The translations under genes and the position numbers were made by a program. The notes beneath the pieces are model-generated. The model was not told where the DNA came from. It made no database searches and worked only from the letters and a program-made list of their open reading frames with translations. Below are positions 34,300-36,420 of a stretch of 64,000 nt of DNA, one piece after another (position 1 is the stretch's first letter; each line of letters opens with the position of its first letter). The stretch is from Minisyncoccota bacterium (GTDB lineage: Bacteria; Patescibacteriota; Minisyncoccia; Phycocordibacterales; CAJBRS01). The stretch is taken from assembly GCA_017881075.1 (NCBI GenBank), contig JADGRH010000003.1:682-64681 (forward strand). Reading direction: 5' to 3'.

Positions 34300-36420
34300 G
34301 TGATACCGGCTGATGTGAGAGGGCGTCTAAAAAAATTGAAAGAGACGATTGAACGTCACCGCTATCTTTATCATGTACTTGACCGGCAGGAAATCTCGGA
34401 TGAGGCTCTGGATTCACTGAAGAAAGAACTTTACGACATGGAGGAAAAATATCCGGAACTGCTCACCGCCGATTCGCCATCGCAAAGGGTGGCAGGGAAG
34501 CCCTTACCTGAATTTAAGAAAGTGCCACACAAGGTTCCACAATGGTCTTTCAATGATGCTTTCAGTGAAGAGGATATTCGTAATTTTGACGCTCGGGTAA
34601 AGAGATTTCTTAAGGCGGCTGCAGAGGTCAGACCTCTGCAAAGCAGAGGTCAGACCTCTGCAGCTCCTCCGACCTACGTTTGCGAATTGAAAATAGATGG
34701 ATTAAAAATTGTTCTCGAATATGAAAATGGACTATTAAAGACGGCTGCTACGCGGGGAGATGGGGAAGTGGGCGAAGATGTCACTATGAACGTCCGCACT
34801 ATTCAGTCAGTGCCACTCCGACTTAGTGAGTCGTTAGATCTTATCGTCGAGGGCGAGATTTGGATGAAGAAAAATAATTTTTTGAAATTGAATAAGGAAA
34901 GGGCAAAAAGCGATTTGCCGCTTTTTGCCAATCCCCGAAATATTACAGCCGGGTCAATTCGCCAGCTTGACCCGGCTGTCGCCGCCTCAAGGCGGCTTGA
35001 GGCCTTTGTGTACGATATCGCCCTTCTTGGGCCAAGCTCTGAGCTACCAATATCGAAGTCTGACTTCGATATTAATAAACATCATAAATATCGAAGTCTG
35101 ACTTCGATATTGCCGGAAACCCAGATTGAGGAGTTGAAATTGCTCCAGAAGCTCGGTTTTAAGGTGAACAATCATTTTGGGCTCTGCAAGAATATTGACG
35201 AGGTGATTGCTTTTTGGAAAAAGTGGCAAACGAGTGCCACGAAAGAAGATTATCTCGTCGATGGTGTGGTCATTAAAGTCAATGAGCGTAAATATCAGGA
35301 TGCACTTGGCTACACCGGCAAGGCGCCGCGTTTTGCCATTGCCTTTAAATTTCCAGCCGAACAAGTAACGACCGTCGTTGAAGACATTCAACTTCAGATT
35401 GGCCGAATGGGAACGCTCACTCCGGTCGCCCATCTGAAACCAGTGCTGGTGGCGGGTTCTACCGTTTCTAGGGCCACTCTTCACAATGAAGATGAGATCA
35501 AGCGTCTGGATGTTCGAATAGGTGATACGGTTATTTTGCAAAAGGCGGGCGATGTCATCCCTGACATAGTCAAGGTCTTGACAGAAATGCGCACCGGCAA
35601 AGAAAAGCCATATGTTTTCCCAACAAAGGTACCGGAATGCGGTGGCAATGGGCGAATTGAGAGAATTCCGGGTCAGGCGGCCTGGCGATGCGTGGATAAG
35701 AATTCGGGCGCTCAGCATCGACGCAAGTTGTACCATTTCGTCGGTAAGCACTCTTTTGATATTGATGGCATGGGACCGAAGATCATCGATAAACTTTTGG
35801 ACAATCATCTTATATCGGCCGCCAACGACATTTTTACTTTGAAAGGAGGTGATCTTTCAGAACTAGAAGGATTTAAAGAAAAATCGGTGACCAATCTTTT
35901 ATCTTCAATCGAAAAAGCCAAGAAGGTTCCGCTCGCCAGGTTGGTCATCGGTCTTTCCATTCCTCAAGTCGGAGAAGAAACAGCATATGATTTGGCAGAC
36001 CACTTTGGAGATCTAGAAATTCTTCGAGGTGCCTCATTTGAAGAATTGCAGACTATCGATGGGGTGGGGGATGTGGTGTCGGAGTCGATTGTTCAATGGT
36101 TCAAGAATAAAGATAATAAGGAATTTTTGAAAAAACTTTTGAAAGTGATAGAGATTGAAAAGCCGAAGAAAGTTAAAAAAACAAAATCGGAGCAAAAGTT
36201 AAAAGGAAAGACTTTTGTTTTGACGGGCACGATGGAAGCAATGTCGCGAGATGAAGCCAAGGGAAAAATTCGTAATCTTGGTGGCGACGTTTCCAGTTCA
36301 GTTTCTACCAATACGAATTATGTGGTGGCGGGGGAAAATCCAGGCTCCAAATTGGAAAAGGCGGAGGAATTTGGTATCAAGGTTTTGAATGAGAAAGAGT
36401 TTCTAAAACTAATTAAATAA
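34300..36420 (+). CDS. ligA: NAD-dependent DNA ligase LigA
   Basis: The 706-aa protein has the KxDG adenylation motif [11 protein letters not shown] and Zn-finger CxxC...C motifs, HhH repeats and a C-terminal BRCT domain. It carries two in-frame palindromic insertions. Confidence 0.95.
34621..34661 (+). repeat. tandem pair of 19-nt perfect palindromes inside ligA
   Basis: GCAGAGGTCAGACCTCTGC, AAA, GCAGAGGTCAGACCTCTGC encodes [15 protein letters not shown] between conserved LigA segments. Confidence 0.8.
35049..35111 (+). repeat. tandem pair of 25-nt perfect palindromes inside ligA (63-nt in-frame insert)
   Basis: AATATCGAAGTCTGACTTCGATATT occurs twice, separated by AATAAACATCATA. The insert encodes [21 protein letters not shown]. 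Confidence 0.8.

Follow-up and report, generated by a model that had tools for sequence, protein, structure and literature searches.

Two palindrome doublets in frame within ligA of a Minisyncoccota bacterium are probably REP-type elements of RAYT-associated families

How does an essential gene come to carry two pairs of perfect palindromes within its reading frame? The question is raised by ligA, the gene of the NAD-dependent DNA ligase, in a 64,000-nucleotide stretch of contig JADGRH010000003.1 (positions 682 to 64,681; assembly GCA_017881075.1) of an ultra-small, Paceibacteria-type Minisyncoccota bacterium, from the superphylum called the Candidate Phyla Radiation (CPR) or Patescibacteria; this whole stretch is referred to below as the window, and its features are collected in Table 1. 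An initial annotation had noticed the palindromes, described them as two in-frame insertions and likened them to the Rickettsia palindromic elements (RPEs). The analysis described here indicates that they are probably elements of the repetitive extragenic palindromic (REP) type, belonging to families that are associated with REP-associated tyrosine transposases (RAYTs).

At site 1, the 19-nt palindrome GCAGAGGTCAGACCTCTGC occurs twice (34621-34639 and 34643-34661) around the spacer AAA, with complementarity that reaches 34618-34664, and the doublet encodes part of a stretch of 16 residues. At site 2, two copies of the 25-nt palindrome AATATCGAAGTCTGACTTCGATATT (35049-35073 and 35087-35111) are separated by a 13-nt spacer (AATAAACATCATA, 35074-35086), and the 63 nt in total encode 21 residues. 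The arms of the units are 9-12 bp long, and both doublets are in frame. The sequences, coordinates, spacers, 63-nt length and reading frame reported earlier were confirmed to the base, as was the position of site 1 between the RVKRFLK segment (amino acids (aa) 99-105) and the KxDG lysine, K131. The earlier term “tandem” is also literally right, as the unpaired centre nucleotides (A and A at site 1, T and T at site 2) make both pairs direct and not inverted repeats. The repeat periods are 22 nt at site 1 and 38 nt at site 2; since neither is divisible by three, the two members of a pair do not share a reading frame, and it follows that what is repeated is the DNA and not the peptide.

A chance origin of these palindromes is excluded by the palindrome count, the pattern matches and the folding z-scores. 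There are nine perfect palindromes with arms of at least 11 in the window versus 0.2 in shuffles, and, with up to three mismatches allowed, the pattern of the site-2 palindrome (family A) is matched three times against 0.00 expected and that of the site-1 palindrome (family B) twice against 0.01. Four of these copies, which are the window total in 64 kb, lie in ligA. Each ligA doublet is able to fold into one long hairpin with a single mismatch; in that of site 1 the mismatch is A.A (-25.8 kcal/mol, z = -7.75), and site 2 reaches -24.6 kcal/mol (z = -11.2). The remaining family-A copy is the intergenic hairpin at 12116-12142, which had been noted to have a core in common with site 2, and indeed its sequence TAACGAAGTCAGACTTCGTTA is only two mismatches away from the 21-nt family-A core (-10 kcal/mol, z = -6.7). 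An independently assembled Logan contig of run SRR10489828 (L007) shows 100% identity to the window over its 9330 nt, the two inserts included.

That the doublets are additions to the ligase can be seen from its alignments. An alignment of the window's LigA with that of E. coli (2owo; E = 1e-167) spans the whole protein, and not only is the frame preserved at both sites, as had been observed before, but the invariant columns of an 80-sequence LigA alignment are all kept, including K131, D133 and G134. The E. coli protein has gaps of 13 residues at site 1 and 22 at site 2, and most of 119 close relatives, the best of which (named Candidatus Paceibacterota) is only 75% identical, have about nine residues at site 1 and one or two at site 2. 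The possibility that the extra residues are ancestral, with homologous residues at the same positions in other LigA proteins, was examined, and no equivalent is present in E. coli or in most of the 119 relatives; the residues are thus insertions, as the initial annotation had proposed. Excising exactly 35049-35111 joins SSELP to PETQ, which fits the KLPPTQ of the two closest relatives, L004 and L006, and no target-site duplication is visible at this clean junction (CTACC before and GCCGG after the insert). At site 1 the net gain is 9-10 codons (27-30 nt) with respect to L004, L005 and L006. In an AlphaFold model of the protein built on 80 homologues, the mean pLDDT (predicted local distance difference test score) is 89.6 and the inserts are the only two low-confidence loops, with a mean of 55 over aa 111-120 at site 1 and block means of 76, 55 and 53 over aa 241-270 at site 2, where aa 262-267 form the sole segment below 50. 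The two inserts therefore fall in loops, as the initial annotation had anticipated, and the ligase looks functional, with two additional floppy loops.

Other LigA genes of Paceibacteria bear hairpins of their own at the same two loops. CCCCCCCTCTTCAGAGGGGGGG is present at both sites in L001, a nested palindrome at site 1 in L002, palindromes at site 2 in L004 and L006 and at site 1 in L005, and the family-B core at site 1 in L239 and L240. Some of these palindromes are perfect without any change in length, namely those of L005 at site 1 (27 nt), L004 at site 2 (31 nt) and L239. We take the recurrence mainly to mark places where LigA tolerates extra sequence, though targeting of the two loops is possible. 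The ligA gene of the window also has a third hairpin, GGCAAAAAGCG-ATTTGC-CGCTTTTTGCC (around 34902-34929, 11 codons), which overlaps the conserved FANPRN motif and has a counterpart at the corresponding position of L004 (10579-10606) and of L006 (10583-10608), with a compensatory A:T to G:C change.

The distribution of family A was followed by scanning 185,579 species genomes with the pattern AWCGAAGTCNGACTTCGWT, for which about 35 chance matches were estimated in the whole collection. At least 110 genomic stretches were found, almost all of them in metagenome-assembled genomes (MAGs) of CPR/Patescibacteria. Among the 80 titled matches listed, 37 are from named CPR taxa (Paceibacteria, Saccharibacteria, Giovannoni-, Azam-, Nomura-, Nealson- and Liptonbacteria, Minisyncoccia and Parcubacteria), 24 are from unclassified “bacterium” MAGs, many with several copies, six are from one “Omnitrophota” MAG, and 13 are singletons in other phyla, mostly without extension past the pattern and at about the level of chance. 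Some CPR MAGs contain at least 8-9 copies each among the matches listed. From 128 copies a symmetric 21-nt core was derived, TATCGAAGTCNGACTTCGATA, and the 21-nt core of site 2 agrees with this CPR-wide consensus; the T at position -10, which had been left unfixed in the search pattern, is kept in 109 of the 128. Pairing of the stem drops to background near position 16, which means that the outer stems are copy-specific. Free CGAAGTC half-sites are only slightly above chance (about 73 versus 56 expected). The suggestion of a dispersed palindromic family with both coding and intergenic copies is thus borne out by the copies in other CPR genomes. Carriage by phages was considered and rejected, as the sole match among 2.9 million viral contigs shows, and in Rfam no family scored above threshold for the whole window or the ligA region, where only generic hairpin and miRNA models appeared, far under their gathering scores.

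Nor is ligA the only gene that has been entered. Open frames of at least 150 aa hold 62 of the 128 family-A copies, and with a coding density of about 90% in such genomes, a share of about half means that the repeats are depleted from genes, though far from excluded. In other CPR genomes, in-frame copies are found in the leucyl-, threonyl- and cysteinyl-tRNA synthetases (LeuRS, ThrRS and, as a pair, CysRS), UvrC, MiaA (again a pair) and TsaD, and further hosts include a hydrogenase-like protein (a pair), a MurD-like protein and others. The frames are used unequally by the coding copies, SKSDFD being encoded 37 times, YRSxTSI 18 times and IEVxLR eight times; a preference for the hydrophilic frame SKSDFD would be expected from selection on the encoded peptide.

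The link to a transposase comes from several loci in which two family-A copies lie about 750 bp apart with the gene of a protein of about 230 aa between them. This protein matches the Pfam family PF01797 Y1_Tnp (IS200-like transposase) with 31-40 bits at a cutoff of 23, and its sole match in NCBIfam is the REP-associated tyrosine transposase (NF047646), with 39 bits, below the 80-bit equivalog cutoff. The HUH motif PNH[FYI]HLL is present together with YIH[TL]NP, of the Y---N type, following the definitions of the RAYT HUH motif and tyrosine context in PMC6006769. A phmmer search against PDB sequences, the solved RAYT structures included, gave no meaningful match. Such a RAYT-like gene is present in 13 of 110 family-A loci (at least 110 having been found), and in 10 of the 13 a palindrome is situated inside the gene or no more than a few tens of bases from its ends. 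Family-A palindromes stand about 10-50 nt from one or both gene ends in L017, L034, L102, L107, L116, L049, L063, L085 and L040, while the gene in L027 has an internal family-A copy near aa 165 and variant palindromes at both flanks, and its paralogue has another palindrome, ACGACGAAGCGTCGCTTCGTCGT, at either flank. By its sequence layout, this combination of palindrome and Y1 gene in other genomes is that of a REPtron, with one enzyme type per repeat family, as defined for REP elements and RAYT transposases (PMC6006769).

Family B, with the palindrome GCAGAGGTCNGACCTCTGC, was found in at least 120 metagenome stretches, the four centre nucleotides being equally frequent, and a RAYT-like clade with 40-45% identity (L127, L216, L165, L173 and L194) is associated with it. 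The two ligA sites thus represent two different, related families, each with its own transposase clade. In both families, RAYT-like genes bear their own palindrome type in frame and at the same loop (aa ~60-75): L034, L049, L102 and L017 for family A, and L216 and L127 for family B. These in-gene copies are read in differing frames (IEVGLRY, SKSDF, RGPTS, GRGLTS), and in the same alignment no GTCnGAC-centred copy was found at this loop in L027, L129, L165 and L173. The in-frame palindrome may be autoregulatory or may simply be a tolerated insertion; we know of no description of a cognate palindrome inside a RAYT gene.

Different families also meet within one locus. Eight further palindromes of the form AGGTCnGACCT are present in family-A loci, some of them 3-14 nt from a family-A copy, and all ten doublets seen in other loci are inverted, with the centre nucleotide flipped, as in REPINs (doublets of inverted REPs). 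A possible third family has one intergenic palindrome in the window, and its consensus GACATCnGATGTC recurs in other CPR loci as singles and inverted doublets, with seven further copies in L015, L024, L105, L108 and L128 and doublets in L024 and L105. Palindromes of different families were observed side by side within a few bases in L016 (5842-5895), L078 (around 3960-4045, in the order CACTTGGAGGCCCGGCCTCCAAGTG, family-A copy, TGTGAAGGTCAGACCTTCACA) and L011 (3600-3680); these mosaic clusters resemble bacterial interspersed mosaic elements (BIMEs). A group of family-B copies has a shared context, CCCGGGAGCACGGGTCGTGCCGGG(ATGA)-palindrome-TTTTTTTGTT, in soil and freshwater metagenome contigs (L138, L147, L154, L157, L158, L162, L178, L180, L187 and others), where the centre nucleotide varies between near-identical copies; in this context the palindrome resembles the hairpin of a terminator, and the structured GC-rich element that it follows may be a small RNA gene.

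Taken as REP-type elements of RAYT-associated families, which is what they probably are, the ligA inserts could have arisen in the following way. The palindromes would fold into hairpins in single-stranded DNA, a RAYT-type enzyme encoded elsewhere in the genome would cut and rejoin them, and copies would be deposited in ligA; selection would then retain only in-frame and stop-free insertions in surface loops tolerant of extra residues. The inserts would be tolerated selfish DNA, not selected for ligase function. This scheme is drawn from the established chemistry of the IS200/IS605 TnpA and of E. coli TnpA_REP, and we infer that a RAYT mobilised these ligA copies, that the source genome encodes a RAYT and that the peptides are neutral.

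Several observations weigh against this interpretation. No RAYT homologue was found in the 64-kb window by tblastn at 1e-5. A 5′ tag of the GTAG/GTGG (or CGTC) kind was looked for in 127 copies oriented by their centre nucleotide, and no asymmetric conserved flank was seen; conservation of the family-A flanks ends at the symmetric T/A at positions -10/+10. The two doublets of the window are direct, as opposed to the ten of ten that are inverted elsewhere. The outer stems are perfectly paired in spite of being different in each copy, and the relatives L005, L004 and L239 have unrelated perfect palindromes at these ligA loops without a change in length, which simple cut-and-paste does not explain. 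The edges of site 1 are not resolvable by comparison with the relatives, as a palindromic block of 41-47 nt stands against a net gain of no more than 27-30 nt. Transposition of these elements is itself deduced from the chemistry of TnpA and TnpA_REP. As a speculation, the direct ligA doublets could be minimal mobile units.

As an alternative, the palindromes could have formed in place, by template switching during replication (fold-back or quasipalindrome copying), in which the nascent strand copies its own flank and hairpins are perfected wherever the protein tolerates it, with no transposase involved. Mutations of this kind are known for perfect and copy-specific stems, for inverted doublets and for palindromes arising in coding DNA without length change, and all of these are encountered here: the outer stems are copy-specific and yet perfectly complementary, in the window, the genes recG, pyrG and that of RNase J contain perfect palindromes, presumably without a change in length, no-length-change palindromes occur at the ligA loops of relatives (L005 site 1, L004 site 2 and L239), the bases inserted at ligA site 1 in L240 relative to L004 seem to include the reverse complement of the left flank, and the inverted doublets elsewhere are the expected product of inverted duplication. 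However, a core of 19-21 nt that recurs hundreds of times in the same form, at loci that are unlinked and in different CPR classes, is beyond what mutation alone can yield, and mutation does not account for cores that flank and enter cognate Y1 transposase genes. The doublets of the window are direct and hence not fold-back products, and identical long palindromes are found at many unrelated sites within one genome in L017, L030 and L075. As a full explanation, template switching is therefore considered unlikely, but it may contribute to the growth or extension of the stems. A slightly less likely alternative is that the hairpins were selected as functional structures of ligA or its mRNA, for protein binding, RNA stability or processing, or a translation pause between domains, and that the dispersed copies have such roles as well. 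It would explain why in several lineages (L001-L006, L239 and L240) the two ligA loops are occupied by hairpins of unrelated sequence, why the third ligA hairpin is kept with a compensatory change in the window, L004 and L006, why many intergenic copies lie just past stop codons, like terminators, and why RAYT genes retain their own palindrome at a fixed loop. Most LigA relatives, however, are without a hairpin at either site, and the sequence at a given site varies by lineage; no T-tract follows either of the ligA palindrome copies in the window sequence, no Rfam family matches, and the stems are perfectly Watson-Crick paired, lacking the G.U pairs that selected RNA helices typically have. 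Tolerance of the loops accounts equally well for the recurrence.

Two further alternatives hardly compete with a REP-type origin, even when taken together. Natural competence was worth considering, as a type IV pilus and competence-like operon adjoins ligA, and in Neisseria uptake sequences are enriched in genome-maintenance genes and pair up as terminators; the palindromes might on that account be a DNA-uptake type of signal, accumulated by biased uptake. Half-sites that are barely above chance, the coexistence of several unrelated cores, a density as low as about one copy per 20 kb in the window and a link to transposases that the uptake model does not predict make this very improbable. Even less credit can be given to an artefact of assembly or library preparation, chimeric or adapter-derived. 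The source is a MAG, and amplification chimeras can give palindromes, but the independent assembly of the raw run is identical, the inserts leave an essential gene in frame, identical cores are present in hundreds of assemblies from unrelated projects, and among the paper texts searched, primers included, none has the sequence in such a context.

Compared with the REP/REPIN-RAYT systems, the likeness extends to dispersed palindromes of 19-31 nt that occur as singles and closely spaced doublets, to the tie between each family and a Y1 transposase gene of its own, which has the repeat at its flanks, to the presence of several families per genome, and to the many copies just downstream of genes. 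It also extends to coding DNA. Di Nocera et al. reported in 2013 that REPs occur within genes, more than half of them as dimers encoding 20-30 aa, and that genes of replication and repair, among them that of the Opitutus terrae DNA ligase, are enriched for intragenic REPs (PMC3733652). The phenomenon seen in ligA is therefore not new in kind. There are also differences. The CPR units lack the GTAG/GTGG or CGTC tag and are perfect and fully symmetric, whereas REPs are imperfect palindromes; their 21-nt core is common to CPR classes, while REPs have been characterised as specific to a species (PMC6006769). REPs are predominantly extragenic, in contrast to the family-A copies sampled, about half of which are in long open frames. 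Several of the CPR RAYT genes hold an in-frame cognate copy, the RAYT scores below the NCBIfam equivalog cutoff (39 versus 80 bits), and the window doublets are direct, unlike the inverted doublets of BIMEs and REPINs.

The analogy with RPEs drawn in the initial annotation is sound, since RPE-4 and RPE-6 of Rickettsia have been equated with REPs of the CGTC type (PMC3733652). RPEs, too, are palindromic repeats inserted in frame in many housekeeping genes at positions compatible with the fold, and they are found between genes as well (PMC10969869). Sequence similarity to RPE-1 is not expected, the ligA inserts being probably of the REP/RAYT type: RPE-1 is about 100-150 bp long with a conserved peptide, whereas the ligA units measure 19-25 nt and their doublets 41-63 nt, in differing frames. 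The host, moreover, belongs to another phylum (CPR, not Rickettsia), and for the CPR families a candidate transposase has been identified.

With IS200/IS605 elements, the palindromes would have in common an enzyme superfamily (Pfam Y1_Tnp), the recognition of ends as hairpins in single-stranded DNA and the lack of a target-site duplication, as at site 2. The two end hairpins of IS608 lie on the same strand in direct orientation, and the direct orientation of the ligA units parallels this. In contrast to these elements, the ligA hairpins enclose neither a transposase gene nor tnpB but a “cargo” of just 3 or 13 nt, the tyrosine motif in CPR is of the RAYT type Y---N and not Y---Q, and the CPR transposase genes are apparently few per genome and not multi-copy. 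The inserts differ from MITEs (miniature transposable elements with inverted repeats) in that site 2 has no target-site duplication and in that the would-be terminal inverted repeats (TIRs) are themselves entire palindromes. TIGR-Tas arrays were rejected, their units being many-repeat guide-RNA arrays with box C/D motifs. A CsrA-type GGA loop was dropped as well, since the loops of ACATCGGATGT and GTCGGAC hold GGA and the window centres are A or T. Known sequencing adapters and loxP-like contaminants gave no match, and the palindromes are present in hundreds of unrelated assemblies.

Few bacterial repeats have been known for as long as REP elements, and how they move, for what reason their transposases persist as single genes and what they do to host genes are still open questions. 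A symmetric 21-nt core without a guide tetranucleotide, together with its cognate Y1 enzyme, is a compact system that offers a clean pair of substrate and enzyme for biochemistry. It spans a superphylum of tiny genomes thought to be poor in selfish DNA, and it tolerates insertion into essential genes, so that it constitutes a natural experiment on how short palindromic insertions give conserved proteins new loops. In practical terms, the inserts account for odd differences in length and for low-confidence loops in CPR alignments and models. In the literature search, neither RAYT nor REPIN was found together with CPR names, and the literal palindrome sequence had one irrelevant match in paper texts. 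As far as this shows, the searchable literature does not describe the CPR host, the untagged symmetric core, the conservation across classes, the high coding fraction, the copy within the transposase or the direct doublets. It is tempting, if tentative, to go further and suppose that the CPR superphylum holds an undescribed and long-lived REP-RAYT partnership, with cores of 19-21 nt kept across classes and palindromes that routinely colonise coding DNA, including essential genes of replication, repair and translation and the transposase gene itself, and in which the in-RAYT copy and the direct doublets belong to a working mechanism (autoregulation through its own hairpin, or direct doublets as minimal IS200/IS605-like units). 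If that were true, hairpin insertion would be a general route to new surface loops in the proteins of streamlined genomes.

Table 1. Location of ligA and of the palindromic features of the window
Feature	Position	Strand	Basis
ligA, NAD-dependent DNA ligase, 706 aa, intact; hosts both inserts	34300-36420	+	Open reading frame (ORF) and E. coli LigA alignment
Site 1, family-B direct doublet GCAGAGGTC-A-GACCTCTGC	34621-34661	+	Sequence, pattern match, fold
Site 2, family-A direct doublet AATATCGAAGTC-T-GACTTCGATATT	35049-35111	+	Sequence, excision test, fold
Family-A single, intergenic, AATTAACGAAGTCAGACTTCGTTAATT, 5 nt past the stop of the 845-aa ORF 9574-12111	12116-12142	.	Palindrome search, core match
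Possible third family, intergenic palindrome CCGACATCGGATGTCGG, consensus GACATCnGATGTC	41895-41911	.	Palindrome search

The surroundings of ligA are conserved. The gene is located directly 3′ of a type IV pilus/pseudopilin operon (24137-34295), with PilB/T-like ATPases, PilC, a prepilin peptidase and several N_methyl pilins, and 5′ of gatC-gatA, an arrangement that is syntenic in all close relatives (L004, L005, L006, L007 and L239). The prepilin peptidase genes of L004, L005 and L006 each have one perfect palindrome of their own. The window also contains a tmRNA gene (1874-2283 on the minus strand, 95.8 bits) and seven tRNA genes. In L005, a G12C17 homopolymer palindrome at 12179-12207, near the contig end, looks like an assembly-end artefact.

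Further palindromes were seen in other genes of the window. The recG gene (minus strand, 14674-14700, GGCGACCTCGCCTACGGCGAGGTCGCC) and the pyrG gene (plus strand, 46979-47005, GCGGGTTTCGCCTACGGCGAAACCCGC) each have a 27-nt perfect palindrome (12+3+12); the two have a common 13-nt centre, TCGCCTACGGCGA, and encode GDLAVGEVA and AGFAYGETR, respectively. Other loci, 1.5 Mb in all, have this exact centre only one more time (L070), and the stretch in pyrG presumably involves no change in length relative to E. coli PyrG. In the RNase J gene (minus strand), a 27-nt perfect GC palindrome at 56511-56537, GGGCTGCGGCCGCCGCGGCCGCAGCCC, encodes the poly-alanine run GAAAAAAAAR, in a low-complexity N-terminal extension.

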